Translations under genes and position numbers: made by a program
In this document: in pieces, positions 39,732-63,946 of the stretch
Position numbering within the stretch: the stretch's first letter is position 1
Layout: every line of letters begins with the position of its first letter
Notes under the pieces: generated by a model
Databases searched by the model: none
What the model was told of the DNA's origin: nothing
Seen by the model: only the letters and a program-made list of their open reading frames with translations
Assembly: GCA_044892525.1 (NCBI GenBank)
Contig: CM097885.1
Span: forward strand, 11,286,001-11,350,000
Direction: 5' to 3'
Origin: Schmidtea polychroa
Lineage: Eukaryota
Length of the DNA stretch: 64,000 bases

Positions 39732-40151
39732 ATGACAAAGAAAATTTCAAGCACTGAAAAGCCAAAAGTTGTTCCAGAACTTGTACAACCTGTTCAAATG
39801 TTCCACAACTATAAAATGTATTTTTTAAAAGAAGAAATCAATATAAAATTGGTGTCACCGATCAAGCTAATTCCAACTAAATTTCAATTCTTATCCGGCA
39901 CGCTTTCAATGTTAGATGTTAAATCTATTGATGAGGTTTTCAAACGGTTGAATACGAATCTATCTTGTAATCAACATGCCTGGTTCAACAACAGATATGC
40001 AAGATTTTATGATTCATTTGATGAAATCGGTTTCAAAGAAAACGAAAATTGGTATATAACAATTGCAATCCAAGGATATAAAGTTGATAATAATGATGTG
40101 TATTCTCCAATTTGGAAAATTATGTCTGCTAGACTTTCACAACTATTTTAA
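39732..40151 (+). CDS. Accessory protein, possible OB-fold ssDNA-binding protein
   Basis: Conserved 136-139 aa ORF with an aromatic, beta-rich C-terminus (WYITIAIQGYKV..YSPIWKI). Confidence 0.6.
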   Translation: MTKKISSTEKPKVVPELVQPVQMFHNYKMYFLKEEINIKLVSPIKLIPTKFQFLSGTLSMLDVKSIDEVFKRLNTNLSCNQHAWFNNRYARFYDSFDEIGFKENENWYITIAIQGYKVDNNDVYSPIWKIMSARLSQLF

Positions 40152-40284
40152 TGTTATATTTAATAAATGTATTAGTCATATTTGTTTTTTCTCTTTATTA
40201 ATTGCAACATTAATGCAAATGACATGCAAATTTAACAAAGAAAATCTATAAACAAACTTATAATATAGTTTTAAAGTGTTATTA

Positions 40285-40619
40285 ATGACTACAGAAAAAG
40301 GTTAACATGATTAATTAAATACCGAATTATTTATTATTTAGAATTATTAATCAACTTTTTGTTGGAAAAGTTAGCAGAAATAGCTGGTGTAAAAATTGAG
40401 GATATATTATCTATTACAAATGCCTTAAATATCGGCTGGGTAGCTGAGAGTCAAGATTCAGGATTTGACAATCATGAAGAAACTCAAGAAATTGATGACG
40501 AAATCTATGAACCTATAGAGGAACCTAAAGATAATATTACGAATGATTGTATTGATCATGTCGTTGAAAATATAATGAAATGTGGAGATGACGATTGCGA
40601 ATGTGTTAATAAATTTTAA
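40285..40619 (+). CDS. Small acidic accessory protein (intron 40301-40341)
   Basis: Spliced MTTEKE|LLINFLL frame; DSGF motif, acidic tract and CGDDDCEC tail. Confidence 0.65.
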
Positions 40620-40691
40620 AATTGAATTATTTTCATTTAAATATACTATTAAAAACAATAACATTAATTTTTATTCATATATCTACAGAAA

Positions 40692-40692
<1 letters not shown>

Positions 40693-40755
<63 letters not shown>

Positions 40756-41288
40756 TATGTTTTATTACATTGTTTATTAATACCCTTGCGAGTTGTTGAG
40801 CGTGACCAGTACCCTTGTGAGCAGTACCCATAGGGGGACAGAATATTTTGTCGGATAGACTCGGAGTATATAGATTAATAATATATCAATGAGAACACTA
40901 ACTTGTTGCGTGTGTGGACACTAATAATATTTTTATACATTGTGTGTGTATGACCATAGGGGAACAGAATATTTTGTCGGGTAGACTATATTGTGTGTGT
41001 GTAATAATAAATTTATTTTATTAAACTTTTATCAATAAGTTTTTAAAATACCGCAACGTAATATATATTTTAAAATACCGCAACGTAATATAAATTAAAA
41101 AAAAAATTTTTTTTTAAAAAAATTTAAAAAAAAAAAAAATTTTAAAAAAAAATTTTAAAAAAAAATTTAAAAAAAAAAAAAAAAAACCCCCCCTCCCCCC
41201 GGGGGTGGGGGGTATGACGTAATATGTCTTTGTGACGTCATCGATGACGTCATATGTCTTTGTTCCCGGGTCCACACAATACCCTACT
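40693..41288 (-). repeat. Right terminal inverted repeat of copy 2
   Basis: Reverse complement of 26112-26745. Confidence 0.95.
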
Positions 41289-41550
41289 ATTGTTGTTTTC
41301 CTTTTTTCCCTGATTTCAAAATTCTTTTTTCTTTTTTGTACTAATTAATTAGTACTGATCTTCATTTTTATTTTCCTGTTTGATAACTTTTATTTCCTTT
41401 CTCTTTCTCATTTTTGATTTCTTTTCACTTCCGTTTTCTTTTCTGAGTCCCTATAGATCGTCCCGTTTGTCATGGCGATCTTCCCCAGGTAATTTTATTT
41501 ATTTCTTTATGAATTATTATTTAGGTATCCTCAACATATCTCCCCCTTTA
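41289..41550 (-). repeat. Start of a 3' LTR (TG at 41536) with its polypurine tract
   Basis: The minus strand reads TTCGAGGACGAAAT..AAAGGGGGAGA-TA-TGTTGAGG, a typical Gypsy PPT/LTR junction. Confidence 0.7.
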
Positions 41551-44493: not shown

Positions 44494-44859
44494 TCATCTT
44501 TTGTCGAGTAACTTTGTAATTTTTATCTTTTCATCTTCTCTTTGATAAGTGGCTAAGATTTTTGAGCTTCCATTCTTCTCCGTTGATGATAATTGTATTT
44601 CCCACGAATTTTCCGTAGTTACCGTTTGGGTTTCCATATCTTTGAGTCTTCGTTTTGCCATTCTCTTTATACGAAGCTCAATTTTCCCCGCCATTTTTAA
44701 TTCCTCTTCCATTGTTATCGTTACTTTATATCTCTTGATGGTTTTCATTGATTCGATGGAATGAAGATTTATTTCCATCTCTTGGATTTCCACAGCTTTT
44801 TCCTTTTGTGGTTTTTCCGGGATTTTGAGTTTACTATATTCCCTTTTTTGATTCATCAT
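44494..44859 (-). CDS. Unknown 121-aa ORF at the 3' end of the retroelement
   Basis: Its start overlaps the exonuclease stop (TAATG); same K/E-rich composition. Confidence 0.45.
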   Translation of the reverse strand: MMNQKREYSKLKIPEKPQKEKAVEIQEMEINLHSIESMKTIKRYKVTITMEEELKMAGKIELRIKRMAKRRLKDMETQTVTTENSWEIQLSSTEKNGSSKILATYQREDEKIKITKLLDKR

Positions 44860-46016
44860 TAGTTGGCGAGTTCTAACTCTTGTAGGGAGTGAGATATCCG
44901 CGTTGGCACTTTTATATCATCTTCCCAATCGCTTTCCAATGCCAAATAAACTCGTCTCACTGCATCCGTATCTTCTCTTGCCGAGTGCGTTCCCTTTTGC
45001 ATTGATATTTGGCATATTTCTTGAGCAATTATCGACAATTTGTACCATTGCCCATTCTTTGTGATTTTCCTTTTCGTTAGAGCTTGGACTGCTGCTAGAT
45101 CCCGAATTCCCCATAAATCATTTGGGTTAACTCCACTATACCTTAATTCATTTTGTAGATCATGTACTACCAATATTTTTCGTGCTGTTAGTTCCTGAAT
45201 TTTCCTTTGGCTCTCATATTGGTCTTCTTGGTTCCTAGACATTTTTTCAGTAATGCCGTGAACCTGTGTAACATAGTTTTTTATTTTTTCTCTCGGAGTT
45301 ATCAAAGCATTATAGATTATTTTCCCGGTATATTCGATGAGGCATACCGCTAGTGGGATCATTCTATTGTCCTCACTTACTCCATATTCGGCATCCATGA
45401 ATATTATATTTTTTCGGATTTCTTCAGTGGTTAAATATTTTCTCAGGAATGACTTTCGGTGTTTCAACATTTCCTCAGTAATTGGGAGCAAGGTATTTTC
45501 TTCTTCTATTGAGATGATTCTTTCTACCGCGTTACTTGTGGGCATTTTACTGCGGCATTCTAATACTAACCACGCGGTTCCATTCGTTGCTCGCATACGT
45601 TTATGCCATGTTTCTTTATCAATTTTCCATGATGAATTGTTTGGCATTGTTCAGGTTATGGTTCCTTCATTGTTTATGATTTCCACTATTCCTTTAAATA
45701 CACGGATCTCCCAATTTTCATCATTTTTCCTCACTAATAATTCGGCTATTTTCATTCTTGATCTCCATTCGATCTCCATTAGACATATCCTCATTTTCTC
45801 ATTGCCTGTTCTTGCCCAATTTGGGATTCTCAGATTTTCTTCGATTACATATGTCTTCTCTATTCGGCTTCTCTTTTCTCTAAGATACTGTGAATATAAT
45901 TTCGCTGGTCTGCTGATTTTCTCCATTTGATATTCTTTGTTTTTCTTCGTTTTCTTCTTTAAAAATTTTGTCAAATCGCTGAAAACAACCATACTCTTAT
46001 ATCCCAACTCTCCCAT
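44859..46016 (-). pseudogene. DEDDh 3'-5' exonuclease (REX4/ISG20-like) with N-terminal extension; one in-frame stop
   Basis: IFMDAEYG, VTQVHGIT, ILVVHDLQNE, IRDLA and HSAREDT motifs. ORF 45651-46016 is in the same frame. Confidence 0.82.
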
Positions 46017-46184
46017 CAGTAGTACAATCGTTTAACCAATCAAATTACAGGAATGATAATTTAATTTTAGATCACGAATAATCACAATACAAGATCACTA
46101 TTAGTCATTTTTATGTAATTATAAAAGGTATGAAAGAAAGAAATACTCTACGATATTAATAGCATGCAACGAAATCATATCTTA

Positions 46185-47360
46185 CTACACCCATGTCTCT
46201 AACTGCTGCGGCTCAGAATATTGATAGTCGCAGATAGAATTGTCATTGTCATTACTTCTCAAGATTAGAACAATGTAGATGAGTAGGATACCACTTGGTA
46301 TTGCCACAATGATACATATGAATAGCAATTCGACACAATTGTTATGAGATGATTTTTCTTTACAGTTTAGTGAAAAGCTTTCGTTTTTTGACCATGAGGG
46401 TTTTACGGTTAATGTTAGATTATGATCACTTATTATTTCTCCAATGGGTTGAGTATGAGGAAGATGAATATGTCTATTTTCAATGAAAGTGACTTTCCAT
46501 TGATCTGAGTTCGCTTTGCGCTTGCAATATTGAATTTTGATCATGAAATTTCTTGGTTTCGGATTAGATACTGAGTTCAAGGTACTCAACTTTGCTCTTT
46601 GTTGGTATTCGTCTAACACCACCTGAATTTTATTATTTACAAAAATATTTACCCTTTGTCTGAGGCCTGGTTGGCGTAACACAATTATTTCATTGTTCTC
46701 AATTTTTATTTGAACTCGATTAGTTTCGTTAACCAAGTGTACTGCTTCATATTGACTCTATCCATTGATTATTCATATACGTCCCATTGTCATGAATGAG
46801 TTTCTCGTAATAATGTATTGAAAGACTGTAAGTGAGATTTTCTTGTAAATTTTTGTATTTAACAAAAGATTTTCTTTTATTTAATGTTTCAATCGTAATG
46901 TTTTGAAAAACAATTCTGACTTTCTGTTGCTCTTCCGCTTTCCAATATACGTGAATTTCATTTATCATCGGTTCAATTTCAGCTAAATTTCTCCATTCAT
47001 TTGTCCAAATGTTAATTTGTATAAGGTTATAAATATTTTGAGTAGTATTTGTTTGATGCGTATATTGTTTAATGGTCCAAGGATATTTGTAATTTGCTGT
47101 CAATCGACGAGCTACATATATGCTTTTCTCATAATTCAACGTAACAGATGGTTCGAAAGGGTTCAATAAATTACTAACTTCTATTTGTTCTGATATTTCA
47201 CAATGATATGTCCACACAATACTAGTAAATGTTGTATATATATATAAATTTTATCCAATAAGGGTACTTTTTCTACTGAATATGGTAGATTCATTGTTAT
47301 TCCACTTGCATTTGCTATGACATTTATTATGACTGTAGTTATAAATAAAACTCTGTTCAT
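46185..47360 (-). pseudogene. Type I membrane protein with FN3-like ectodomain, downstream of integrase
   Basis: Signal-like VLFITTVIINVIANA, EIHVYW..YKNLQENLTYSLSI, TM LLFICIIVAIPSGILLIYIVLIL, and tail ETWV. Confidence 0.55.
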
Positions 47361-47439
47361 ATATCCCAATGGCGTAGGGTTTTTTTGAAATTTTTGTTGA
47401 ATAATTTTTTCATCATTAAGTTTTTTTTGTTTTGATCGT

Positions 47440-48895
47440 AATTGATACTCTATTTCGGATACTTTCTTACATCGATTGGCATGAACTATAATTGTTTCTG
47501 CTCTTTTGTTATTCATTGGACGTAACTTCAAATTAGTTGCTGTAACATCACATACTGTATATGGACCTTTGAATGGTCTTTGTAATTTTATTGATAGGCC
47601 CCTTACTGGCTCCGGCCTGTTTAAATATACTGAATCTCCGATTTTATTCCGTGCTCATGCGCCTTTTTGTCATAGTTTTCTTTATATTTTTCTTGACGAT
47701 ACTTAATTTTTAACCCCGCACGAGTCCATGCAGATTATAATCGTTCTTGTATTATTACTTTATAATTTGGAACGTCCATGTATTGAGACGTTGGGGGTTG
47801 AAATTTCAGGTCAATTGTCATATTGTTTCGTCTCAAATACATTAAATAAAAAGGTGTTTCACCTGTACTCTCGTTAACTGCATTTCGATAGGCAAACAGA
47901 CATGGATTGATAAATAAGTCCCAATCTTTTTGTTTCCGATTTACATACGATGAGATCATATTGATTAAAGTACCATTAAATCTTTCTACTAGCCCGTCTG
48001 TTTGCGGGTGATATGGTGATGTATTTAATTTATAAATACCAAATAATTCGGTAATGGATTTAAATAAATCACTTTGAAAATTTGTTCCTTGATCTATTAA
48101 CAATTTCTTTGGAGCACCATATCTGAATATAATCTTTTCGACAAATATTTGAGCAACTTCTTCCGCTTGTTGATTTGGTATTGCGTACGCCTCTGGCTAT
48201 TTTGTTAAATAATCACAAAATACAATAATATATTTATTTCCATTTGTAGTTTCGGGTAAGGGCCCGATAATATCCATTGCTGAAAATTCTATTGGCACAT
48301 CTGGTATTGGCATTGGTTTTAGTGGGACTTTTATTTTCTTTCCTGTATTCTTTCGAGTTAGACAAATTTTGCACGTATTACACTAATGCTTTACATCTTG
48401 GTCCATTGTATTCCAAAAATACTTTAGTTTTAATCGTGACATTGTTTTTCTTGCTGATAAATGTCCACCCAATGCTCCATCATGATATTGTAACAATAAC
48501 GTATTTCGATGCTTAGTTGGAACAACTATTAATAATTCATCACCTTTAATACACTTTAATATACCTTTGTGAATTACATATTTATGCTTTTCCTCAATTA
48601 ATTGTTTCAATTCACTGTCCTTTTTCATTATCACTGTATGTTTGATTATTTGTTTTAGTTCATCATCCATTTTCTGATCTCGTTGCAGCTCTGACATATT
48701 GTTTGCTGCTTTGATTACTGATAATACTGTATCTCTCAAACTTATTTCTTCCTGGTCAACACTAATTTCCTCATTTGAGATCCTTGACAATGCATCTGCG
48801 TTAGCGTTTGATTTTCCTGTTCGGTATTTTATTTCAAAATCATATTCTTGTAAGGCTATAGACCACCTTATCAATTTGCTTGCTGCATCTCGATG
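47440..48895 (-). pseudogene. Gypsy RNase H end, linker and integrase (HHCC, DDE, GPY/F)
   Basis: RWSIALQEYDFEIKYRTGKSNANADALSR, HDGALGGH..CKIC, MDIIGPLP, DQGTNF, YHPQTDGLVER and FKGPY. Confidence 0.93.
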
Positions 48896-50242
48896 TTACA
48901 TTAACCATTGTAACGGATTATGATCTGTATAAACAATAAATTTCCGACCCACTAGATATTGTCGAAATGTTGTTATCCCATATACCAAAGCTAAAGTTTC
49001 TTTTTCAATTGTTGAATAATTTTTCTCATGGGGTTTCAGTGATCGGCTAGCATATGCAATGACATGATCCTTTTCTCCTTCTACTTTTTGCCCCAACACT
49101 GCCCCTAATGCAAAACCACTTGCATCTGTCATTAATATGAACATCTTTGTAAAATCTGGGCATCGCAATATTGGATTAATTATAAGATTTTGTTTGAGAA
49201 TTTCGAAAGCATCTTGTTGAGCTTTATTCCACGTAAATTTAAGAGTTTTCTTTAATAACATTGTTAATGGTTGAGCAATATGTGCAAAGTTTCTAATAAA
49301 TTTTCTATAATAACTTGCTAACCCGAGAAACTGTCTGACGTCATCAACATTTTTTGGAATAGGATATTCTTGGATTTTCTTAACATTATCTGGATTTGGT
49401 TGTAAACCCCTCCGTGAGATAATATGTCCAACATATACTACCTCTGACTTACCCCATTCACATTTTGATGGTTTGATTTTGAGACTTGCTTCTCTAAGCC
49501 GTTTAAATACTGTCTCATCTCTCACATGCTCCTCAAAGTCACTTGAAAATATTATAATATCATCTATGTACACTAAAGCATGTGGGATATCTCTCAGTAC
49601 AAAATTCATTCCTCTTTGAAATGTTGCTGGTGCATCTGTCAAACCAAATGGTAAAACATTAAATTCATACAAACCTTTTCCATCTGAGAATGCTGTTTTT
49701 CCTTTATCTGATTCTTTAACTTTGAATTGATTATACCCTTTATTTAAATCAATAACAGTAAAATATTGAGCTTCTCCCATTTTGTCGAACATTTCCTGAG
49801 GAACTGGGATTGGATATGTATCCTTTCTTGTAACTTGGTTCAATTTTCGATAATCGATACAAAATCTTATTTCACCGTCTTTCTTCTTAACAACAACAAT
49901 GGATGAAGAAAATGGTGAAAAACTGTCTCTGATGATATTGAAATCCTTCATCGCCTTTATTTGTCTATCACTTTCCTCTTGATGTGCATAAGGAATTCTG
50001 TATGGTCGTAGTTTAATTGGAGTCTCATCCATTAATGGAATTTCGTGCTCAATTACATGAGTAACTCCTAGATCATATTCATGTTTTGCAAAGACGTCTT
50101 GATATTTTCTCAATAATTTCATAAATGTTTGTATTTGTTCTTGGGTCAAATCTTTACTGTTTACTTGAGGTTCTTTGTATATTTTTATATTTTTTGGTAA
50201 TCTTTTATTGTCCATTTTTAAGATTTTTGTCAATTTTCCCAA
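48896..50242 (-). CDS. Gypsy reverse transcriptase and RNase H (polyprotein segment)
   Basis: RFCIDYRKLN, LPFGL, YIDDIIIFS, TDASGFALGAVL and YTDHNPL. Confidence 0.96.
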   Translation of the reverse strand: MGKLTKILKMDNKRLPKNIKIYKEPQVNSKDLTQEQIQTFMKLLRKYQDVFAKHEYDLGVTHVIEHEIPLMDETPIKLRPYRIPYAHQEESDRQIKAMKDFNIIRDSFSPFSSSIVVVKKKDGEIRFCIDYRKLNQVTRKDTYPIPVPQEMFDKMGEAQYFTVIDLNKGYNQFKVKESDKGKTAFSDGKGLYEFNVLPFGLTDAPATFQRGMNFVLRDIPHALVYIDDIIIFSSDFEEHVRDETVFKRLREASLKIKPSKCEWGKSEVVYVGHIISRRGLQPNPDNVKKIQEYPIPKNVDDVRQFLGLASYYRKFIRNFAHIAQPLTMLLKKTLKFTWNKAQQDAFEILKQNLIINPILRCPDFTKMFILMTDASGFALGAVLGQKVEGEKDHVIAYASRSLKPHEKNYSTIEKETLALVYGITTFRQYLVGRKFIVYTDHNPLQWLM

Positions 50243-50269
50243 TTTCGTTTTTGGTCTTAATGCTATTTC

Positions 50270-50830
50270 TTAATCATTATTGTTGGTAATATAAACAGGA
50301 ATTAATTGGTCTTGGACTTTTACTAGTTCATCGCACATGGGGATATCATACTTTTCGATTAATGTTTCACTTGGTTGAAATATAAATTCATCATCTGGAA
50401 CTCCCATTGTATTCACATAACAAATAACTTCACTTTGAGGTGGAACTCTTAATGTTTGGTTTAGAAACACGTCTCCTGTTTCATGAATGGCTTTCCCCGT
50501 TTCTTCCATAATCAAATTTCCCGTTTTCAAATCAAGACAAACTCCTTCTAGCTGTGCTAAAACATCCATACCCACTAAGCATTCCACTGGACAATTTTGC
50601 ATTATTAGAACATCATGAGCAATTTCCTGATTTCCAATATTGAACTTGACTCTAATCTGCCCAATAATATTTAGTTTGTTTTTCGTCATTGATCGTACCA
50701 CTTCTTCTGTACTTCTCATTTGTGCTTTCTCATCTGAATTCAACACTTCGTCTGATAATATCGTATTACTCGAACCTGAATCTAATCATGCTTCAACTCT
50801 ATGTTTATTTACTTGTACCCATATTCTTGG
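50270..50830 (-). pseudogene. Gypsy aspartic protease and spacer
   Basis: LDSGSSNTIL catalytic motif and CLVGMDVL. In frame with the upstream glycoprotein and downstream RT, separated only by stops. Confidence 0.88.
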
Positions 50831-53142
50831 TTATCTGCCTCTGTTTCCGACTGTCATTAGCGCATAATTTCCTGGTAATCCCAGCATATTTCTCCTTTCA
50901 ATTTCTGCACTTGTCGGTATAATTTGCTCATTTGTTAATTCAATATTCTCAATTGGCCTCATTTCCTTTAGGTTTTCCACTGGATATATTGGTGCTGTTG
51001 GAATAAAAGTTTTTGGAATACATAATCGACTGAAAGTGTCTGTTCCACTTGCCTGTGGTACTGTATGTAATAAACTCATAGATTTAGATTTTTCCTTTAT
51101 ATCATTTATTTTTGTTTTATTATTTTTATAATAATACATAGGGGGTACTCTTGGTTTATCATTATCATTATCCCCATATCCACTTCCATTACTCGAACTT
51201 GAATCAATATTTCTTTTATTGTTAGTTAGTCGTGATTTTACTTTCCCCATTTCTTTGTATTGATGCTTGGTAATCAGAAATCTGGCCAAGAACGGTATGC
51301 ATCCAATAATCAATTTCCATGACCAACCAGATATAACATATAATTGGTGTGTAGTTAATATTTGAGATATTATTACCTTTGTCATCACTATTATAACATA
51401 AATTCCAATCAATCCCGCACACGCTTGTCCTAAAAACATAAATTTTCCCCATATATTTTTCATCGTATTATACGTTGCCTTTTTATAATGATCTGGTGTT
51501 AATAGATAATCATAGTTTACTTTTCCTTCACCTCCTGGTAGTATAGTATCAATCATTTCAGTTATTACTCGTTCCTTTTTCGATGGAAATAACAAATTCA
51601 TTCTAGCTTCCTCAACATCTTCTTGAGAATACAATCCGGTTTGTGCTAATTTATCCAATGATGTGAAATTTATTAAATACTCAAGCTTTGTTAATTCGAG
51701 CTTTTCTGGAGTTTTTACTCCTTTGTGATCTGGTAACGATATCCATGAATCTGATGTTAATCGATATAATGGTGCGAGTAATCTGTTGCATTTTAAAACC
51801 TTTGGTTTTACGTCTTCCTCTAACAATATCCGAGTTATTGGTTCCATAAATCTTAGTTTACCATTGGCACTCACTGGTAATTCATTTGTGCATTGTTCGT
51901 GTTTTATAATTTGTACGGAAATTTCATTGCATTTATAGCTATACAACGCTTCACCAAATATCCTTGCAAATACACCGTTTTCCGATATTAACATAGGTGC
52001 TACTAAATTCGGATTTGTGACCGCCATCGCCATTCTATTTCGTAATATTTCTTTGTTTAATTTACAATCGTTTAATATCATTTCTCGATAAATATTTTCC
52101 ACAATGCTTTGGCTGTAATGGAAAAGATAATCTATTTTGTTATTGAAATAATTTGTCAATTTAATATCTGTACTATGTATTTTAATTTGAGCTTCCTCGA
52201 CTCTTTTCTTGGACACATAAATCCCTTTATAATTCGTCTCATACACCGTTTGGCCGCACTTATCCACTACTCGTTTTCGTATGAATCTCATCCCATCGTC
52301 CAATAAAGTTGACATCAGAACTACTGGAGTTTTTCTCTTTCTCAATCGCGTAATTTTAACTGTCATATCCGGCTTTGCTTCCACATTCAATCTTTCCGGT
52401 CTATCTCTCAATTGCTCGCCACTCATTTCACTGAAACTCATTGATTTCAAATGTATCAAGTTACACAAGTTTTTCTTTACTTCATATACCAAAATCGATT
52501 CTCCTGTTTGACAACTGGTCTGTTTCATATTACAGAATGGATGAGTTTGTAATTTGCCTGTATCATCGTCAAAAGCTCCTTTAAATTCTCTCAATTCTGT
52601 TAAATATTCCTCCATCACAACAACTTTGTCAATAATTTGCCCATTCATTTTGTATGGTTCGCCTTCACAATCACCATTGGCCTTTATCACCTCTTTTTCA
52701 ATAATCGTTTCTCGTATTGCATGATTCAATTTAGCCTTCAATTTAATTTCGGGACTTATTTTCAATTCTCCGGTCTGGAATGCAGCCATGCATTTTCTGG
52801 ATTTACATCAACTGGCGTTGGTATTGCATACATTTTTATTAATGATGTGTGACTCCATTTGCCACAATAGAATACAAAACTTGTTCTTTTCACAATACAT
52901 TCTCTCACCGTGGCATGTCTAAATCCAGACTCTTGATATACATAGTATTTTACATCTTTTTCCACTGTTAAACTCAGTGGATGTGCATCTGGACATTCTG
53001 TCATATCTACCATCGAATATACCTTTCCCATTTTTGTTTGAGAACAGCCATAAGCGATTAAAGACGTCGTTTGAGTTGTAATTGCACATAATATCATAAT
53101 CATGAACATTAAAAATGGAAATTTCATGGTGTTTCGTTTCAA
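50831..53142 (-). pseudogene. Chuvirus-like / gB-like (class III-type) envelope glycoprotein; frameshift near 52790
   Basis: Signal peptide, LIAYGC..YSMVD..EC, YCGKWSH, Y.NNKIDY, GEALYSYKC, CTNELPV..FMEPITRIL and C-terminal TM segments. Confidence 0.8.
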
Positions 53143-53762
53143 GACCCCTTATAATTTTCTCTCAATTCCACAACTGGTTTTATTTTTTGTTTAAGCGGCT
53201 TTTCCCAACCTCCATTCTCTTTTACCCATTTGCCAACATGTTTATGTAAAACTTTACTCGCCGTTTTTATTATTTCCTCTTGATTTTCCATATCTGAGCA
53301 ATCATAGGTTCCGATTTCTAACAAAATATAACTCATAATTGTTAATACCATATCTCTATCTATTTTCCCTGTCATCATCTCAGTTATCACATTATCATCG
53401 CAAAATTCCATACCTTCTTTTGCTTGTTTTAACACTACACAAAATCTCTTTTTAACTTTCTCTGCGATTTTTCTCACATATTTCTCAACTTGTATCCTCT
53501 CTGTTGATTCACCATATAATTCGTTTACTAGAGCACGTACAATTTTCTCAGTTTCCTTTGAGTCTTTCTGATCTTTCTCCTCTTGAAATTTCTGTATTAT
53601 TTTACATCTTATTTCATACAAATTTCTGCATTGTTTTTCTTTAATATCATTATCAATCGTCATCTTGGTCATATATGCCTCATTTTTAACTTCAGTTCTC
53701 ATTTCATTTTCAACAATAATCTGCTCCGCTTCATTTTCTATTTCATCTTTTTCAGTCTTCAT
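53139..53762 (-). CDS. Bcl-2-like domain in the retroelement polyprotein region
   Basis: BH3-like YVRKIAEKV, BH1-position KIDRDMVLTIMSY and BH2 VGKWVKENGGWE. Confidence 0.65.
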   Translation of the reverse strand: MKTEKDEIENEAEQIIVENEMRTEVKNEAYMTKMTIDNDIKEKQCRNLYEIRCKIIQKFQEEKDQKDSKETEKIVRALVNELYGESTERIQVEKYVRKIAEKVKKRFCVVLKQAKEGMEFCDDNVITEMMTGKIDRDMVLTIMSYILLEIGTYDCSDMENQEEIIKTASKVLHKHVGKWVKENGGWEKPLKQKIKPVVELRENYKGS

Positions 53763-53790
53763 CTCATTTTTAACAATAATCTCTCCAGTT

Positions 53791-54742
53791 TCATTTTTTT
53801 ATTACATCTCTTTTCATTTCTTGTTCATCGTGCATCTCATCATCATTACTCATTATCTCATTTTCCCAGTTCGGTAATTCCATTTTATTGCTTTCTTCTA
53901 CTTCCTTTGATTCAAATTGTTTCATCGCAACTAAATCATTAATAAACGTTTCCTGATTCGCCAAAGATCCATTTTCATCAAATTTTCGTGGTACACAGCC
54001 ACAATCAAATAAGTACTCATCATCATCATCTAACTCAAAACCTTTGTATGTCAATACAATTATTCCATCACTGCCCATAATTTCTGCTGCTCTCCGTCGT
54101 ATTTTACTCACTTTCGTACACCAATGCTCGTTGGTACATTCCACTTCTTGATCATTTATTTTTAACATTATTACGAATGGCTCAATATAAACTCCTTTTT
54201 CTCTAAATTCTTGTCCAAATTTACGAATAAGCTATTTTATCATTTCACTATATTTATTATCAGAATTTACATAGGATCTGACACAATCTAAAATTTTTAA
54301 TTTATCTTCCACTTCAAATTCTAAATTCAAAATATTATTTAATTTATCAATAATATCACCTGTGTCTCCCTTGATCAATGCGTCATTTAATTCAAATTTA
54401 ATTTTATTGACATCATATTTGACTGGTTTTTCATTGGCAATCATGCTCACTATTTGTATCTCATTTTCAACGCCGGGGATCAATCCACAATCTATCAAAA
54501 ATTCGTCGTCTTCCAACACTCGATTCATAAATCTAAGTTCTACTGCCCAAACTTCACATTTGTGCATTATTTCTCTTTTTAACTCGCGTATTTTCCGTAT
54601 GCCTTAATTTGATACTCGGATTTGATGTCGCCTGATGTATTTGTTTTAATAAATATCGGGTCTAACCATTTGATTTTTCGTAGAGTTTGGCCAAATTCTT
54701 TCATATACTTTTCAAATACATCTCGCTTTTCCACACTTGCTG
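53791..54742 (-). pseudogene. Two tandem ubiquitin-like domains (disrupted)
   Basis: IFIKT..G...KIRELKREI..ELRFMNRVLEDDEFLIDCGL and KVSKIRRRA..VLTYKGFELDDDDEYLFDCG follow the ubiquitin fold pattern. Confidence 0.62.
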
Positions 54743-55144
54743 AGTAGATGGTATGGTCACCGCTAGAACAGGTCACCGCTGGAACAAAGACATTTTTTAC
54801 CCCACCCCCCCCGCCGGCCGGAAAAAATTAAAAAAATTTTTTTTTTCAAGAACAAAGACATATGACTCATCCGATGACTCATCAAGCATTGAAGGTCAAC
54901 TTAAGAACAAAGACATATGACTCATCAATGATATATAATTATTATTATTTTTAAAAATATTATTATTTCTAATGTCTTTGTTCCAGCGGTGACCTACTAT
55001 TTGGCCTGCCAAAAGTTATCGTTCACATCAACTTATTTCATCGATCGATAGCTTATTTTGAAGCTTGGTGCAAGACCTTTCGAATGAGCTATTGTTGTCA
55101 TCACCATCTTTAATATTGACAAAGTTATTAACATTTTCCCAAGA

Positions 55145-55216
<72 letters not shown>

Positions 55217-55351
55217 GAGTATTAATCTATATACTCCGAGTTTATCCGACAAAATATTTTGTCCCCCTATGGGTAATGCTCAAAAGGGTACTGCTCACGC
55301 TCAACAACTCACAAGGGTATTATTAAACAAATCAACAAAACATACATTTAT

Positions 55352-55848
55352 TTAAACAATAAAATAATGTAAAATTAACAAAGGTAAACTAAATATTGAT
55401 GTACTATTCGCAGCAATATTGTTTGAAATTGGTAACGTTGAATTGATTTTCAGATATTCTATTGATCCTTTGATTGTTTGAATTTCTCTTAATAATAATT
55501 CAATCTTTTTTAATAAATAATCATGCTTCTTATCAATAATTTTCATATTCTTTTAATTTTCAACAATAGAGTTATTGAAAACTTCAATATGATCAATCAA
55601 TTTAATTTTTATATTTATATATATGCAAATGATAGTTCATAACTGTTTTCTAAATTCTCCAATCTTTGAGATATTCTTTTTCCTGGATGCTTTGACCATT
55701 TTGGTTTGTCGAGAATATATAAAATATCCATCAACTTGGCTGTATTCGGACAAACACATATTGATTTATTAAAAGACTCCACTGTTATTGTTGTATTGTG
55801 TGAGCACACACTCGTTATAATAATTAACAATATGAATATAGTTTTCAT
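55352..55848 (-). pseudogene. Secreted coiled-coil TIR gene, disrupted
   Basis: Homologous to 8879-9379. Confidence 0.6.
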
Positions 55849-55953
55849 GGTGTATCAAATCAAAACCTTTCTTTTACATTTATAGTCTATCAACCAATCA
55901 AAATCATACGGTATTAGTATAAATAAAACATCATATTTTAAATTATTGTAGAA

Positions 55954-56468
55954 ATGTCTCATTTTATGGAAAATCTTTTAAGTGAAATTATAAACAAGAA
56001 CATTCTGGAAAGCCTGAGTTTCCTAGTGGACCGGGCCGAAAAGATAATTGAAGGAAATCATATCGATTATCAGGATATGATCAATTCTGAGTGCCTGGAA
56101 ACGAAAAAATTCTATTTTCATAGGATTTTTAACTGCCTATGCGACGAGGAGATGAATTGGACCCGAATACTAGTAGGGTTCGCTTATATGAAGATAATAA
56201 TAGAAAAAAGTTTATGGGACTCGGAACATTATTATCAGTAGTCTCAAGAAGTAATACTTTTATAATCTATATTTTATTATTATTTATTTTCTAGATAATC
56301 AAGTCAAAGTTTCAACCATAGATTGAAGCCAATGGCGGATGGGGCGTACTGAATCAACTCGCCAGAAATGCGAAGGAAATAGATCAACAGAAAATTAAAT
56401 TTAAAAACTATATAAAACTTGCAACAGGTGTTGCTATTTTGTATGTTTTATGCCGGTTTTTTAAATAA
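55954..56468 (+). pseudogene. Bcl-2-family gene (intron 56251-56294), two Trp-to-stop changes
   Basis: MNWTRILVGFAY (BH1), P*IEANGGWG (BH2) and a TM tail. Confidence 0.87.
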
Positions 56469-56545
56469 AAATTAATATAGTTATTTTGTTTGATTTTTAA
56501 ATAAAAGTTTAAATAAATTTACAAACACTAATTAACTAAGATTTA

Positions 56546-56928
56546 TTAATTAACACATTCGCAGTCGTCATCTCCACATTTCATTATATTTTCAACGACA
56601 TGATCAATACAATCATACGTAATATTATCTTTAGGTTCATCTTTAGGTTCCTCTATAGGTTCCTCTATAGGTTCATCTATAGGTTCATAGATTTCCTCAT
56701 CAATTTCTTGAGTATCAGTTTCTTGAGTTTCTTCCTCCTCATCATCAAATCCTGTATCTTGACTCTCAACCATCCATCCGATATTTAAGGCATTTGTAAT
56801 AGATAATATGTCCTCAATTTTCACACCAGCTATTTCTGCTAACTTTTCCAACAAAAAGTTGATTAAAAATTCTAAATAATAAATAATTCGGTAATTAATT
56901 AATCATGTTAACCTTTTTCTGCAGTCAT
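56546..56928 (-). CDS. Small acidic accessory protein (one intron)
   Basis: Homologous to 40285-40619. Confidence 0.65.
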
Positions 56929-57061
56929 TTTCATCACTTTAAAGATATATTATAAGTTTGTTTATAGATTTTCTTTGTTAAATTTGCATGTCATTTGCAT
57001 TTATGTTGCAATTAATAAAGAGAAAAAACAAATCTGACTAATACATTTATTAAATATAACA

Positions 57062-57472
57062 CTAAAATATTTGTGAAAGTCTAGCAGACATAATTTTCCA
57101 AATAGGAGAATATACATCATTATTATCAACTTTATATCCCTGGATTGCCATAGTTATATACCAATTTTCATTTTCCTTGAAACTGATTTCATCAAAAGCA
57201 TCATAAAATCTTGCATATCTATTGTTGAACCATGCATGTTGATTACATGATAGATTCGAATCTATCCGTTTAAAAACATCATCAATTGTTTTGACATCAA
57301 TCATTGAAAGCGTGACGGATAAGAATTGAAATTTAGTTGGAATTAGCTTGACTGGTGCAACCAATTTCATATTGATTTCTTCTTTCAAAAAATACATTTT
57401 GTAGTTATGAAAGATTTGAACTGGTTGTACCATTTCTTTAGGTTTTTCGGTGCATGAAATTTTCTTGGTCAT
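57062..57472 (-). CDS. Possible OB-fold SSB accessory protein
   Basis: Homologous to 39732-40151. Confidence 0.6.
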   Translation of the reverse strand: MTKKISCTEKPKEMVQPVQIFHNYKMYFLKEEINMKLVAPVKLIPTKFQFLSVTLSMIDVKTIDDVFKRIDSNLSCNQHAWFNNRYARFYDAFDEISFKENENWYITMAIQGYKVDNNDVYSPIWKIMSARLSQIF

Positions 57473-57800
57473 AGTGAATAATGATGAAATTGAAATGTTA
57501 CAGGGTTTTTATACCTTTGACTCATGCCTATCAACCAATCAGATTATAGCATGTCTTTGTTTAAATTTGCATGTCATTTGCATTAATGCTGCATTTATGT
57601 TCTATTAATGTTTTATTATTACTATTATTATTTATATTATTTCTATTATTACTATTCATATTTCTATTATTTCTATTATTATTATTATTACTATTCATAT
57701 TTCTATTATTTCTATTATTATTACTATTATTATTACTATTATTATTTATTACTATTTCAAATATAAAATAAAAAAAAACACAACAGATACAAAAATACAT

Positions 57801-58218
57801 TTATTCATAACCTAAATCAACAATCCGGGAGTAGTGAAACCTTCTCAGAGTTTTCACTAACTCCCATTCGACATATCGCCGATATCGATCGGCACAGCAT
57901 GAGCATCCGATGATGCATTGGTACTCCGGCTCCATTTGTCTCATAGTTCTGTTGATTTTGATATCCCATAAAAATTGGTGGAATACCTCCATGATTCTTA
58001 TTTGGGTTGAATAAAAAATCAAATCAGGTATGATTTCCGGTTCCCGATCTTTGATTACTTCAGCAATTTGCGGATAATAATATTTTATCCTATTGATCAT
58101 TATTTCTAAATATTTTTCTAAAATAATAAATATAAAAAAATGTGAAAATAAAAATTTTAAATTTACCGTAGTCGTCAATATCTTTCATTAGATTTGCTGC
58201 GCTTGGAATTTTGTACAT
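57801..58218 (-). CDS. CxxGCxCC accessory protein (one intron)
   Basis: Homologous to 6520-6936. Confidence 0.65.
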
Positions 58219-58292
58219 TTTGTTGAATAAATGAATCCTAAACAAAAAACCGTTTGTTTAAATCAATCAATAACCAATTAGAAATTAACCAA

Positions 58293-58730
58293 TTAGAAAT
58301 CGACCAATGAAATTATCTCATTTCGAACATTGTCAACAAATTCTCTATACTCCAAATTTCTCAACTCCAGCATGACAACCTTTCCACTAGCAAACACGTT
58401 GACACATATAGGGTTATATTTTAATAGTCTTAGTGCCGGAAACAATTCCGGTTCAAACATACAATCACATTTTTTCGACATGTTATATAGATTGATACTA
58501 TGTCCCATATCCATAGTAACGGTAATTGATTGGATTATAATATTATTTATTCGATATTGTAATTTATTAATATCCAAAGGTTTCTTACATCCCATGATTC
58601 TACATTTGCCTGTCTTGAAAAATATTATCGGATATTTCCCGCTTCTATCGATAATTTGCTGGGGTTTCCCTGGTGGGAACCTCATATTCGATACATCAAA
58701 ATTTCCTCAATAATTTATATTTGCTAACAT
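58293..58730 (-). pseudogene. TBP-like gene with an early CGA-to-TGA stop
   Basis: Near-identical to 6008-6445. Confidence 0.85.
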
Positions 58731-58833
58731 TATTAAATCATTTATGAAAATTAGTCTTTATATACAAATTGAGCACGAGTTCATTAAATCATCGAATATA
58801 AACAAATACTCGTATATTTATAAAATTTTTGAA

Positions 58834-59460
58834 ATGGAATTAAGAAATGATGCAGTATACCAAATCGTTGGTCCGAGCGGTAGTGGAAAAACATTATTTG
58901 TTTGTAAATTATTAAAATCAGATTTATTGAAATCAAAATTCAACAAGATTTATTGGCATAGGGGTGCTGATGAAGAACATGGATTAACTCAATCAAGTTT
59001 CTGTAAATTAAAAAACATGAACATTGTAAAGGGATTCGATAAAAACTGGTCCAGCCGATTAAAGAAAGGTGATGTCATTATTATCGATGATTTGTATCAA
59101 GAAGCTAATAAAGAAAAAGATTTCAATAATTTATTTACAAAGATCAGCAGACATGTCGGTGTAACAGTTATTTTCATAAAACAAAATCTATTTCATCAAG
59201 GTGGGGCACATCGAACACGTAATTTAAATGTACAATATTTAGTTATTTTCAAGAATCCTAGAGATGCAACAGTGATTGATTTTCTTGCACGTCAAGCATA
59301 CCCTAACAATCGTAATTTTCTTATCAGTGCATTTCAAGATGCTACAAAAATACCTCATGGATATATATTTCTTGATTTCACACAACAATGTCCCGATGAT
59401 TTACGTGTAAAAACAGATATCTTCAACCCAAAAGGTGCCATGGTTTATAAACAAAGTTGA
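58834..59460 (+). CDS. Packaging ATPase
   Basis: GPSGSGKT and IIIDDL motifs. Confidence 0.92.
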   Translation: MELRNDAVYQIVGPSGSGKTLFVCKLLKSDLLKSKFNKIYWHRGADEEHGLTQSSFCKLKNMNIVKGFDKNWSSRLKKGDVIIIDDLYQEANKEKDFNNLFTKISRHVGVTVIFIKQNLFHQGGAHRTRNLNVQYLVIFKNPRDATVIDFLARQAYPNNRNFLISAFQDATKIPHGYIFLDFTQQCPDDLRVKTDIFNPKGAMVYKQS

Positions 59461-59478
59461 AAACCTCTATGAATAATA

Positions 59479-59997
59479 ATGTTTCTAAAAGCAAGGGTGA
59501 AAAATATTAGGAAATTAAGAAAAAGTATTAGAAAGAGTATTAAAGTTCCAAAAGTTCCACCAACAACTAGTTATACACTATCTAAAAAACTTGTAACTGA
59601 AAATTTCTCTGCAATGAATCTTATTTCGAAAAATCCTAAACCTAAACGTAAAACCCGTAAAACCAGTAAAAAAGTAGTTAAAAATCATCGCAGTTTTCCA
59701 TTTTTTAATGCATTGTTAAAAGCCCCGAGTATGAAAAGATTGAATATATTGCAATCATTCCCAAATTTTGTTGTCGATGATTTACTCAATATTATACTTA
59801 AAGTAGTCAAAGGCAAAATTAAAATCACTAAATCAAAAAAGCATTTATTGAGCAAACATAGGAAACCATTGTTATCTTTAGTAAATAATAAAAATCGTAA
59901 GCAAATGAGGAAAATTATATATAAACAACAAGGTGGATTTATTGGTGCATTGATACCTCTGGCATCATCATTATTAGGTGGAGTTACACAGTCATAA
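59479..59997 (+). CDS. Basic core protein with QQGG|F site
   Basis: Near-identical to 4735-5259. Confidence 0.72.
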   Translation: MFLKARVKNIRKLRKSIRKSIKVPKVPPTTSYTLSKKLVTENFSAMNLISKNPKPKRKTRKTSKKVVKNHRSFPFFNALLKAPSMKRLNILQSFPNFVVDDLLNIILKVVKGKIKITKSKKHLLSKHRKPLLSLVNNKNRKQMRKIIYKQQGGFIGALIPLASSLLGGVTQS

Positions 59998-60000
59998 ACA

Positions 60001-60228
60001 ATGGGTGCTAATCCTTCATTACCCGACATTAAATTTAATTTTAAATCTTCTTGTTGTAATGGAGAAGATTTGGACGAACCCAGAAGACGAAGCCGGTTTC
60101 GGTGGAGTGGCAAAATTAAAGAAAAGAGTTCCGAATTCGAAAAAAGAAACCCAGAAGTGGTTATCAGATCAGCTTGCGTACAGTTTGAACAAACCAATGC
60201 GGAAAAGATTTCCAACAAGAGCGTATAA
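60001..60228 (+). CDS. Small MGxxxS ORF overlapping the integrase
   Basis: Third copy of the 75-aa ORF. Confidence 0.5.
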   Translation: MGANPSLPDIKFNFKSSCCNGEDLDEPRRRSRFRWSGKIKEKSSEFEKRNPEVVIRSACVQFEQTNAEKISNKSV

Positions 60229-60446
60229 AACATTTGGTATTGACGATTTATGGAAAATGGATTTGATGGAGATGATACCTTATTCGAAAATTAACAATGG
60301 AAATAAATATATTTTAACATGTATTAATGTATACAGCAGGTTTGCACGAGCAATACCAGTCAAGGCAAAATCTGCAGAAGAAATGTCCAAGGCAATTAAT
60401 ATTTTATTTAAAGATGGACATCCTAATAACTTGCAAACAGATTTAG

Positions 60447-60508
<62 letters not shown>

Positions 60509-61095
60509 GTTATTATTATTATTATTATTTTAGGTAAAGAATTCTACAATAGCAAAGTTAAGCAAATCCTCGATAAACTGAAAATAAATCACTACTCGGT
60601 ACATTCTCAATACAAAGCTGCCCATGTTGAAAGATTTAATCGAACATTAAAAGATAGATTAAAGAAATTGTTCGTGCATCAAGGTAATAAAAATGGGTAA
60701 ATGCTTTACCGAAAATAATAACAAGTTATAATCATTCATCACATCGAGGACTGAATGGATTGAGACCGGTTGATATTACATCAAAAACATCATTGACTTT
60801 TAAGAAATCTGTAAAAATTGCAAAACCTAAATATAAAGTCGGTGACCATGTTAGAATTAGTAAAATTAGTGCATCACCATTTATTAAAAATTTAGATACA
60901 AATTGGAGTGATGAAGTCTTTGTAATTTCAAAAATAAATACTAAACAGAATCCTGTAATGTATGTCATCAAAGACAATGATAATAATATTGTACAAGGGA
61001 AATTTTATGAGCAGGAATTACAAGTCATTCCACCCCCAAAAGTATTTAGAATTCAAAAAATATTGAAAACTAAAAAGGTCGGTAAGGATAAACAA
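60059..61095 (+). pseudogene. Polinton integrase (intron 60447-60533), frameshifted and split by the hAT insertion; resumes at 63955
   Basis: DDE motifs present. 1-bp loss near 60690. Chromodomain codons continue after the TSD. Confidence 0.92.
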
Positions 61096-63946
61096 TAGGA
61101 TGGAGTGAAAATTTTTTTTTCTTAATATCTTGTTTGGATAGCTATAAAAACTTGGTAACACATGCAATTAGTAATGTGGCAAACAATTAGACAATTTAAA
61201 GCATATCTTGAGGTTCCACAATTGACCTAAAGTATAGGCACATTTCGATAAAAAAGCAATAATCTTTAAAAAAAACATTTTTTTATAAGTAACATATTTA
61301 TGTTATGGTTTAACTTTTTAACAGTCTGTACATAACATTACAAGTAATAAGAACCATATCTGTGAAGGGAAACCACATGCAAACTGTCTAACATGTTTTT
61401 ATAACTACAAATGATGTTGGGCTTTGGTGTCCAGTTTTGGCATTTTCAATCTCGATTCCAAGCGTGCTCTAATGAATCCGTCGCGTTTTTCTGGACCACA
61501 CACCATTTCGGATGCTTCTGTCACTAGCTTGATATGTCTCTCTACTGCCTGGGTGTGACAAGGATAGCGGGCGAAATCCAGTCTTGGCGTTTCTTCTTCC
61601 CGGATCATGGTTAACAAAGTATCTTCGTCAATGTCCACTACGATTGGAGGCTCTGTGATCGGAGTTTTCTGCCAATCGATCATGTCTATGTAGCTAGTAG
61701 CTTCAAAGTTGATTACTGGCACGAAGAAAGATCTAACTGAAGTCGTACGTTTCTGCTTTCTGGATTTCAGTATGCGTCGCAGAGCTAACTCGCGTATATC
61801 TGATCTTTCATCGGTAAGCATCGCAAGCAACAGATTTTCTGGATGACTAAAGAATGCGTTGCGTTGAATTACCGGGTCAACAACTTTCTTCAGCTCGTCT
61901 GTGAGGTAGCGTGATTTCAGTATCGTACTGTGGACATGTCGAGCGCCGTCTTTACACGAAGGGGTATTCTTTATTTCAAACCATGCAGGTGCATAAACTG
62001 TTACGATGAAGGTAGCAAGCGTCTTTAGTTCATCCGACGGGCTTCTTGTGGCAACATACAGACGTAGTATGCGATTAGCCGTGGTTAACCATCTCGAATG
62101 GTTGATAAGACCAGGATTGCGAAGTGAATGGTCGACAGGACAAATACCAACACTTACAGCAGTACACAAATCGAACAGGTATTTCTGATCTGTACTTAAA
62201 TCGTCGGAATTTGCACTTGACGGTAGAACACAGTTTATCGGCATGTAGTCAACGATGGGAAGCTTCTCACAATTCAACAATGACTTTCCAATGGGACCAG
62301 AAAATCCTTTTGGACCATTGGTAGGTCCATCGAGATACTGAAACAAATGTCTTAACGGTAATTCGTTTGCATGCAACTGACATACGAACCACTGTAGCGG
62401 TCTGTGTAACGTCACTTCAAGTAATCGAATGATGCCTCCTCGAATGCCCGTATTAGTGGCTGTCCCATCACAACCTATTGCTTTTATGCCACTCGTGTCA
62501 ACATTTCTTTTATTCAAATATGCAATCAACTCAGCCGTGATAACTTTGCTTGACCCTGCAGTTGGTGTAATGTGACCGAAATATGTAGCTCCTGGTTCGG
62601 CTATAATCGATATATGTTCTTCAGTTATTATTTTCCGATGAAATTTACCATCGCATTCTTTAATTTGGGTCATTGTATTGTCTTTTCTGCCGTCAAAATA
62701 TAACCCAGTGATTGTGTTACTGACTTCGGCACATAATGCGCCACGCTTATTACAACGTTCTCGACGCACTTTACTTCTGTCAATCACTTTAGAAACATCA
62801 TGTTCGTGGATTATTCCAACATCTTGAAGAACAGCACTGGCGATTCCTGCTGCCGCCCTGTCGGATACGCCATGTCGATCACACGCTAAAGCCAACGACG
62901 GTAGCTTAACTCTCATCTGCTTGTCATTCAATTTTCGCGGTTGTTTAATTTGGCTTATACAATCGTCATCAGAGTCATCATCGCCGGTATCCATTTCCTC
63001 TTCCATTCCAGAAATCTCGTCACAGACATCCGACTGTTTATCACCGATGTCATCAATGGCAGATTTGGTACACATCTGCCTCTGTGTCGACTCTTTACGG
63101 ATATACCGCTTTTGTAATATACTGGATTCAAACTCATCAACTCCAGCTATGATCATACAGCGTGAACCCCGCTGATCTTCTAGAAAGTCACGTTCAATTG
63201 TGGGTATCTTTCTTGACTTCTCACAGTGACACTGAGACATACAAGAGCACTTGCAGGAGCAAATGTCAAAGAGTTTAATCGATTCATCTTTAAACTGCGA
63301 TATTTTCTCTCTGTATGGTTCTGAGTCCTTCCTAGATTTATACGGCTTCAGCAATTTCATGAACGTCTTGTGGTACACGTTCAACATTTCATGAACACGG
63401 CGGTGGCTTACATGTGGTATGGAAGCTTTGTCCCATATTTGTTCTACTTTCATTGACACTGTTTCTGCCACGTTGCGATGTGAAGGATCTTTATTGGTCA
63501 ATTCGCATTTCAGTCTCTGCTTTGTCAGGTTGTAGAATTTCATAACATCTGCATAAGTCGGTAGTTGATTGTCGGGCATCTCGGATGGACCACCAAAGAT
63601 GACACAAGACACTTTCTTTCTGGTTACAGCCATTGCAACTCTAAAAAGGAAAACCAGAGGCATTTAAAATCCATAGTGTATGGGTGGCAAATATTTTGCT
63701 ATTAAAAGTAATGAAAATATTATTTAAATGCCATCAATGACTTCAATAATATGTCAATAATAGCAAATACATTATCGTTTTCTTATCAATGGTTACATTT
63801 TAAAGTTGGTTGTGGAACCTCAAGACATTATTTAAATTATTGTTTTTCTTTACAGAGTACTTCATTGGACCTCATAGCAAGTTTTTATAACTATCCAAAG
63901 TCTACTAAGTCAAAAAAATTTTTTCGGTCATTTTCACTCCACCCTA
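61096..63946 (-). mobile_element. hAT-superfamily (hATm-like) DNA transposon, 2851 bp
   Basis: TIRs TAGGATGGAGTGAAAA and TTTTCACTCCACCCTA; 8-bp TSD ATAAACAA at 61088-61095 and 63947-63954; subterminal inverted blocks. Confidence 0.93.
61405..63663 (-). CDS. DDE transposase (hATm-like), intact
   Basis: YFDGRKD, GCDGTATNTG, CQLHANEL, HSRWLTTA and HTQAVERHIK motifs. Confidence 0.9.
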   Translation of the reverse strand: MPLVFLFRVAMAVTRKKVSCVIFGGPSEMPDNQLPTYADVMKFYNLTKQRLKCELTNKDPSHRNVAETVSMKVEQIWDKASIPHVSHRRVHEMLNVYHKTFMKLLKPYKSRKDSEPYREKISQFKDESIKLFDICSCKCSCMSQCHCEKSRKIPTIERDFLEDQRGSRCMIIAGVDEFESSILQKRYIRKESTQRQMCTKSAIDDIGDKQSDVCDEISGMEEEMDTGDDDSDDDCISQIKQPRKLNDKQMRVKLPSLALACDRHGVSDRAAAGIASAVLQDVGIIHEHDVSKVIDRSKVRRERCNKRGALCAEVSNTITGLYFDGRKDNTMTQIKECDGKFHRKIITEEHISIIAEPGATYFGHITPTAGSSKVITAELIAYLNKRNVDTSGIKAIGCDGTATNTGIRGGIIRLLEVTLHRPLQWFVCQLHANELPLRHLFQYLDGPTNGPKGFSGPIGKSLLNCEKLPIVDYMPINCVLPSSANSDDLSTDQKYLFDLCTAVSVGICPVDHSLRNPGLINHSRWLTTANRILRLYVATRSPSDELKTLATFIVTVYAPAWFEIKNTPSCKDGARHVHSTILKSRYLTDELKKVVDPVIQRNAFFSHPENLLLAMLTDERSDIRELALRRILKSRKQKRTTSVRSFFVPVINFEATSYIDMIDWQKTPITEPPIVVDIDEDTLLTMIREEETPRLDFARYPCHTQAVERHIKLVTEASEMVCGPEKRDGFIRARLESRLKMPKLDTKAQHHL

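Follow-up and report, generated by a model that had tools for sequence, protein, structure and literature searches.

Does a fusion glycoprotein that lies ahead of pol belong to the retroelement around it, and can one reading frame hold both? The question is raised by 64,000 nucleotides from the planarian Schmidtea polychroa (assembly GCA_044892525.1, contig CM097885.1, positions 11,286,001 to 11,350,000), which we call the window. A first-pass annotation of the window had described a chuvirus-like glycoprotein upstream of, and in frame with, Gypsy protease and reverse transcriptase. We argue that the glycoprotein is a genuine part of the element. The explanation as a whole is very likely a GAG-ENV-POL element whose one polyprotein gives both a predicted gB-type fusion protein and a predicted FN3 surface protein.

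The window copy

The window's minus strand carries, in 5' to 3' order, a ubiquitin-like region, BCL2-like domain, glycoprotein (Env), protease (PR), reverse transcriptase (RT), RNase H (RH), integrase (IN), a further region and an ORF with a DEDD exonuclease domain. The features are as follows.

53799 to 54742, minus strand: remnant between Gag and the BCL2-like domain (ubiquitin-like region), with frameshifts near 54594 and 53800; the alignment to other copies begins at 54742
53150 to 53798, minus strand: BCL2-like domain with ENGGW at 53219-53205 and a frameshift near 53150 in the window copy only (Pfam Bcl-2 E 0.0013, under the curated cut-off)
53053 to 53127, minus strand: predicted internal signal-peptide-like stretch 1 (hydropathy peak kept in four families)
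51425 to 53052, minus strand: Env ectodomain of chuvirus/gB type with 14 Cys and, in this copy, a frameshift near 52792 (PF24664)
51368 to 51424, minus strand: predicted Env transmembrane helix TM1 (Kyte-Doolittle 2.1-2.6 in all families)
50834 to 51367, minus strand: Env tail with the late-domain-like motifs PPMY (51145-51134), PTAP (51001-50990) and YPVENL (50986-50969)
50270 to 50833, minus strand: aspartic protease with LDSGS at 50785-50771 and the linker behind it, interrupted by stops at 50833-50831, 50788-50786 and 50272-50270 (Pfam and copy alignment)
48896 to 50269, minus strand: reverse transcriptase (YIDD 49570) and RNase H of Ty3/Gypsy type (RVT_1 E 3e-30, RT_RNaseH_2 E 6.5e-35)
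47400 to 48895, minus strand: integrase with zinc finger, core and a KGPY motif at 47570; stops and frameshifts interrupt it (Integrase_H2C2 E 2.6e-14, rve E 8.6e-6)
46188 to 47354, minus strand: second predicted membrane protein, split over three frames in the window, in frame after the integrase in unbroken relatives
Parts of the second membrane protein, minus strand: signal-like stretch 47354-47307; three FN3-fold domains and a stalk; transmembrane helix 46319-46263; C-terminal ETWV 46199-46188
44497 to 46031, minus strand: separate ORF2, disrupted in the window, with a DEDD-type 3'-5' exonuclease domain (Pfam RNase_T E 3.4e-5)
41288 to 41549, minus strand: polypurine tract and first ~250 bp of the 3' LTR (TG start at 41536)
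26112 to 41288, no strand assigned: ~15-kb Maverick/Polinton-like insertion that splits the 3' LTR and is foreign to the element (~600-bp inverted ends, 6-bp target duplication)
25338 to 26111, minus strand: rest of the 3' LTR (CA end)

The glycoprotein is of the chuvirus/gB type, as had been proposed. In the Pfam scan window 52807-50834 matches PF24664 (Monjiviricetes_fusion) on the minus strand with E 3.1e-71, and 53148-52765 matches the N-terminal part of this family with E 2.9e-12. The Env of another copy, L031, matches it with E 6.7e-89. There are 14 cysteines in the ectodomain, and conserved cysteine columns are found among the relatives. Env has a predicted signal stretch, conserved cysteines and a predicted transmembrane helix, and it is close to a published C1a sequence. 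By sequence it finds no solved fusogen in the PDB, either with single-sequence or with profile searches, and no Env relatives were found in viral contigs. We provisionally assign Env to class III, on its Pfam match and on PMC13524379.

The same Pfam scan puts Env on the minus strand of the window, 5' of the protease, RT, RNase H and integrase. The attribution of pol to Ty3/Gypsy was also correct. It is borne out by the RVT_1, RT_RNaseH_2 and integrase matches, by the order PR-RT-RH-IN with RT and integrase of Ty3 type, and by the PDB, where the best sequence matches of the L031 RT are 4ol8 and the Ty3-G Gag-Pol 7q5b (E about 1e-48). We take the matched pol models to be assigned to the Gypsy and not the Bel/Pao superfamily. 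The ubiquitin-like region is identified from the corresponding region of copy L031, which has a Pfam ubiquitin match with E 9e-6.

The claim of a shared frame needs more care, since in the window 53142-50270 is not a single frame. A 1-nt frameshift near 52792 cuts off the first ~120 aa of Env, and the one near 53150 parts Env from the BCL2-like domain. The three single stops of the first-pass annotation are real. Those at 50833-50831, 50788-50786 and 50272-50270 all share the frame of LDSGS (50785) and YIDD (49570), although the middle one had been placed at ~50792. None of the window's five breaks between the BCL2-like domain and RT recurs in ten other copies, so we read them as decay and not as recoding. 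Programmed frameshifting or read-through at the Env borders was considered and ruled out, because the breaks are private to copies. The window copy is also 5'-truncated at 54742, and it has neither gag nor a 5' LTR.

ORF2 is open over 513 aa in two copies, and it was not found in one sister family. Its last motif carries a His (HSAxED), which presumably fits the DEDDh type. The insertion at 26112-41288 holds an ORF with rve and chromo domains, and we take it to be Maverick/Polinton-like. Copies related to it lie near 55100-61100 and 400-9600 of the window; these elements feature an integrase-chromo ORF, an A32-like ATPase and long inverted ends. The window also has an open ORF of 752 aa at 61405-63663 on the minus strand. 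It has no Pfam match and is possibly a DNA transposase.

Intact copies and sister families

A 1.3-kb Env-PR probe gave at least 43 matches in the element's own genome. From these we took an own-family set of 11 copies, made up of the window, the nine best others and one more. A complete copy at C1:194.87 Mb is 16,123 bp long. Its 916-bp TG..CA LTRs agree at 99.9%, it is flanked by a 4-bp target duplication, and both a primer site and a polypurine tract are present. LTR length across the families is 0.9-1.06 kb, and the primer site of the element matches the host tRNA-Trp(CCA). A tandem array of this tRNA with a 284-bp unit starts at about 55.02 Mb on C4 (L132), and its 3' end matches the element's primer site. 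The tRNA pattern has 821 matches genome-wide; among the matches listed, all but one are in the C4 array.

It is the unbroken copies that answer whether one frame can hold everything. Copy L031 has a natural frame of 2,828 aa from Gag through the integrase core. In the Pfam scan its order is Retrotrans_gag, three zinc knuckles, ubiquitin-like, Bcl-2-like (weak), Env, protease, RT, RNase H and integrase. The stretch from the BCL2-like domain to RT is unbroken in 3 of the 11 own-family copies, two of which resemble one duplicated locus, and a fourth is unbroken across the 75% of it that it retains. The border between the BCL2-like domain and Env is free of breaks in eight of the ten copies that hold it. 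When contigs of four runs of uncertain type were aligned to L031, just one joint occurred in two of the runs. It has no GT-AG ends, it changes the frame and it lies at a short inverted repeat, and we read it as a deletion variant and not as a splice.

Searching the genome with Pfam turned up 2,580 candidates, and 68 Env loci were scored; frames of more than 3,000 aa are listed at 14 of these. Three sister families were found besides the window's own. Two of them have natural frames, of 3,334 and 3,437 aa, that run to the final transmembrane helix, and LTR pairs in the sister families are up to 100% identical. The order in the sister families is Gag, zinc knuckles, ubiquitin-like (Ubl), BCL2-like, hydrophobic stretch 1, Env, TM1, tail, PR, RT, RH, IN, stretch 2, three FN3 domains (predicted fold), TM2 and tail. 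A metagenomic protein of 3,181 aa has a matching domain order, with Env identity of about 40%.

The single frame that had been proposed, with Env in frame with PR and RT, is thus present in intact copies and sister families even if the window copy has lost it. The proposed order Env-PR-RT-RH-INT is likewise correct but incomplete, because the polyprotein is longer at both ends: Gag-Ubl-BCL2-Env-PR-RT-RH-IN-FN3 membrane protein. We are all but certain of what the window holds: a 5'-truncated, dead member of a planarian Ty3/Gypsy family of 16-kb GAG-ENV-POL retroelements, to which Burro and Smed_errantivirus_1/2 are related.

Two deletion copies belong beside these frames. At C52:148576-152874 (L090-L091) a copy lacks the part from RT to most of IN, and its Env, PR and FN3 protein form one frame of 1,433 aa; its LTRs are partly identical. 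At C4:18.509-18.520 Mb (L114-L115) a deletion has made one frame of the FN3 region and the ORF2 exonuclease, 3,565 aa long and with no final transmembrane helix.

Env is inherited with the element

One can imagine that the glycoprotein is a nested chuvirus-derived insertion, or that it came to lie next to pol by chance. The frameshifts at the BCL2-Env border and inside Env would fit such an origin, but they occur in the window copy alone. The natural frames across this region are unbroken, and Env has the same place in the four families, in a ~30-kb giant element of the same genome and in the distant polyprotein P0008. Among the copies examined there was no intact one without the glycoprotein and none in which it was a separate nested insertion.

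Sequence divergence argues the same way. Env ectodomain identity among the four families is 69-82%. Relative to copy L031, the sister families are 70-76% identical in Env and 80-82% in Pol, P0008 is 40% and 57% identical, and the giant element 38% and 52%. Env dN/dS is about 0.05 where dS is unsaturated, which is strong purifying selection. Since Env and Pol identities rank alike and dN/dS is low, Env must be a selected, co-inherited part of the element. An Env tree of nine sequences has poor support (48-76) and is given no weight here. Taken with the frames and the constant position, the selection on Env leaves the insertion or chance-neighbour scenario with practically no probability.

Some other loci and proteins carry related Env sequences. 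The giant element at C1:270149-284415 (L126-L127) is a ~30-kb Burro-type element with ankyrin and MATH domains, in which ankyrin repeats are followed by a signal-like stretch, ~250 aa and a transmembrane helix. By eye its Env resembles that of Smed_errantivirus_5 (PMC13524379). P0007 is a metagenomic Gag-Env polyprotein that continues into four tandem aspartic-protease-like domains and has no RT. The database proteins P0003, P0004 and P0005 have Env fragments fused to unrelated host genes, and they are probably gene-prediction chimeras.

A second predicted membrane protein after the integrase

Past the integrase, in the same frame, all four families encode a hydrophobic stretch and then about 280 aa of beta structure; a stalk, a strong transmembrane helix and a short tail complete the protein. 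The C-terminal ends are ETWV, ETFV or ETRL, and we take this ETxV/L end to be of the PDZ-binding-like motif class. Searches of Pfam and of PDB sequences gave no match for this family. A profile search against 1.84 billion representatives gave 8 distant relatives, of which one starts with the integrase-end motif and several have similar terminal motifs.

The fold is predicted from a model. A single-sequence fold had a pLDDT of 40, and an AlphaFold2 model from 12 sequences was used instead; its mean pLDDT is 74, with values mostly of 85-94 over residues 41-310. In Foldseek this model matches tandem fibronectin FN3 domains with E 2.8e-10. A single domain gives Z 8.5 and an rmsd of 2.9 over 81 aa. 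An Atlas feature search also pointed to fn3, with low recognition. The ectodomain has a dN/dS of 0.27-0.29 and is under purifying selection. The post-integrase proteins of P0008 and the giant element have the same layout of signal, ectodomain and transmembrane helix, and in sequence no homology between them and the FN3 family was detected.

What would such a protein do? Its most likely part would be that of an attachment or trafficking partner in the envelope of the particles. An attachment role is a tentative proposal. The other scenario is that the FN3 protein is not in the virion at all and that entry is by Env alone. Like the BCL2-like and ubiquitin-like cargo, the protein would then be an accessory that modulates the host, as a receptor decoy or by mimicking adhesion. 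Its rate of evolution is close to that of the BCL2-like domain, which has a dN/dS of 0.26, and far above that of Env; its fold resembles cell-surface receptors and its end resembles a PDZ-binding motif. The ectodomain may also have been swapped in relatives. However, a fast rate fits an attachment protein too. The FN3 protein would be produced one-to-one with Env from one frame, and the C52 deletion copy has kept both in one frame without RT-IN. We put the accessory scenario somewhat short of an even chance. The host-modulating role and the attachment or trafficking role are about equally likely.

Proposed membrane topology and exit

In each of the four families, domains and hydrophobic stretches take turns along the chain, with four such stretches in total. 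The polyproteins of flaviviruses are threaded through the membrane co-translationally and cleaved into products. We argue that the polyprotein described here probably threads the ER membrane four times in a similar way, as its sequence predicts. Stretch 1 would act as an internal signal sequence and direct Env to the ER lumen. TM1 would bring the chain back to the cytosol, where PR, RT and IN would stay, and stretch 2 and TM2 would play the same roles for the FN3 protein. Both ectodomains would in this way lie across the membrane from Gag-Ubl-BCL2 and PR-RT-RH-IN. The products would then be separated by signal peptidase and by the protease of the element itself.

N-glycosylation sequons are consistent with this for one of the two ectodomains. 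The FN3 ectodomain has 1.3-3.3 per 100 aa, compared with 0.2-0.8 in the cytosolic segments. The Env ectodomain has only 0-2 sequons, so the lumenal position of Env gets no support from them. Signal peptides were judged by hydropathy alone. It must be noted that a moderately hydrophobic stretch follows TM1 in all homologues; should this form a second helix, the topology would be the reverse.

One can also imagine that Env and the FN3 protein come mainly from subgenomic RNAs, either spliced or internally initiated, and that the long frame is incidental. Other errantiviruses do have env as a separate ORF (PMC6431247), and in several copies of our element a Met stands directly ahead of stretch 1. 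This Met is not universal, as L032 has a T and family 2 has none there. More importantly, the frame is open across both junctions in four families at near-saturated dS. Subgenomic expression is therefore improbable, and translation as one polyprotein is our preferred scenario.

The Env tail, ~170-190 aa between the transmembrane helix and the protease, points to how the element might leave the cell. YPX3L has its sole copy in the Env tail in all five polyproteins. P[ST]AP has its sole copy there in three of the five, and PTAP is missing in the other two. These ESCRT-type motifs are found in the Env tail only, with none in Gag. Shuffled tails have both motifs at most 2 times in 10,000, a control that is invalid for family 2, where the tail was mis-delimited. 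The counts are not independent, because the four families are related and P0008 is the sole distant repeat. P0007 has a YPXL in its Env tail, and the giant element has only YPxL. In retroviruses late-domain motifs bind TSG101 and ALIX. The PTAP and YPX3L motifs in the Env tail would recruit ESCRT for the budding of enveloped particles, and on these motifs we give ESCRT-driven budding by way of the Env tail an even chance.

Put together, these elements would be flavivirus-like endogenous retroviruses. They would make four ER passes; pol would be preceded by a gB-type fusogen, and a captured FN3 protein for attachment would follow the integrase. They would bud through ESCRT by means of the Env tail and not Gag. 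This combined scenario is an analogy, and it is possible but doubtful in its entirety.

With a single frame, Gag, Env and Pol are bound to be produced one-to-one. It then has to be asked how a membrane protein is released from the middle of Gag-Pol, and the alternating signal and anchor stretches are a testable answer. If the second surface protein and the Env-tail late domains are what they seem, these elements would be among the most virus-like retroelements of invertebrates. They would have a two-component entry machine and an Env-driven exit, which are not known to have been described for Ty3/Gypsy elements, together with near-identical LTRs in a genetically tractable animal. Knockdown of piwi raises Burro transcripts in planarians (PMC8532177), so planarians permit a direct look for particles.

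Comparison with known systems

The first-pass annotation implied that the arrangement was new and named Burro as the comparison to make. That comparison removes the novelty, since the arrangement has been in print since 2019 and was surveyed in 2026. Arkhipova and Yushenova (PMC6431247) reported env in frame between BCL2 and PR in Burro. Burro/GYPSM1 and our element both have one polyprotein with Gag, three CCHC knuckles, Ubl, a BCL2-like domain, an in-frame env before PR, and pol. They differ in size: our element is 16 kb with a frame of ~3,300-3,400 aa, whereas Burro is >30 kb with 4,873 aa (PMC6431247). Unlike Burro, our polyprotein and ORF2 have no MATH, BIR or ankyrin match in the Pfam scan, a scan that does find ankyrin and MATH in the giant element. 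Between PR and RT, Burro has a dUTPase-like domain (PMC6431247); at this place our element has a conserved segment of ~130 aa, with no dUTPase match in Pfam.

Chary and Hayashi (eLife 2026, PMC13524379) describe gB-type GAG-ENV-POL elements of nematodes, bryozoans and flatworms, and S. mediterranea accounts for six of these. Smed_errantivirus_1 and _2 share the order, the Env class (HSV/gB-type, C1a) and the host group with our element. In a comparison by eye, copy L031 agrees with the printed Env domain I-II of Smed_errantivirus_1 at ~112 of its first 150 residues. P0003 looks almost the same as the printed sequence, and BLAST with it gives 70% identity over 160 aa. Their account treats three ORFs, and the main text makes no mention of a single ORF, in-frame, polyprotein, fibronectin, late domain or ESCRT.

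Two other kinds of element share single parts with ours. Bel/Pao elements with a chuvirus glycoprotein (Dezordi 2020, cited in PMC13524379) have the same glycoprotein family, but the pol here is Ty3/Gypsy and matches Gypsy-type Pfam models only. Bdelloid LTR elements have a DEDDy exonuclease as ORF3 (Rodriguez 2017, PMC5408684). Both they and our element have an accessory DEDD exonuclease ORF after pol, but ours has a His in the last motif and is preceded by a membrane protein.

Our element is a compact relative of Burro inside the published GAG-ENV-POL group. An in-frame env before pol is already published, and the present copy adds one family to it. For the FN3 protein and the Env-tail motifs no earlier description was met in full-text literature searches or in the text of PMC6431247 and PMC13524379, which does not establish absence from print. 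The second predicted FN3 membrane protein at the end of the polyprotein and the late-domain motifs in the Env tail are an apparently undescribed addition to a known type of element.
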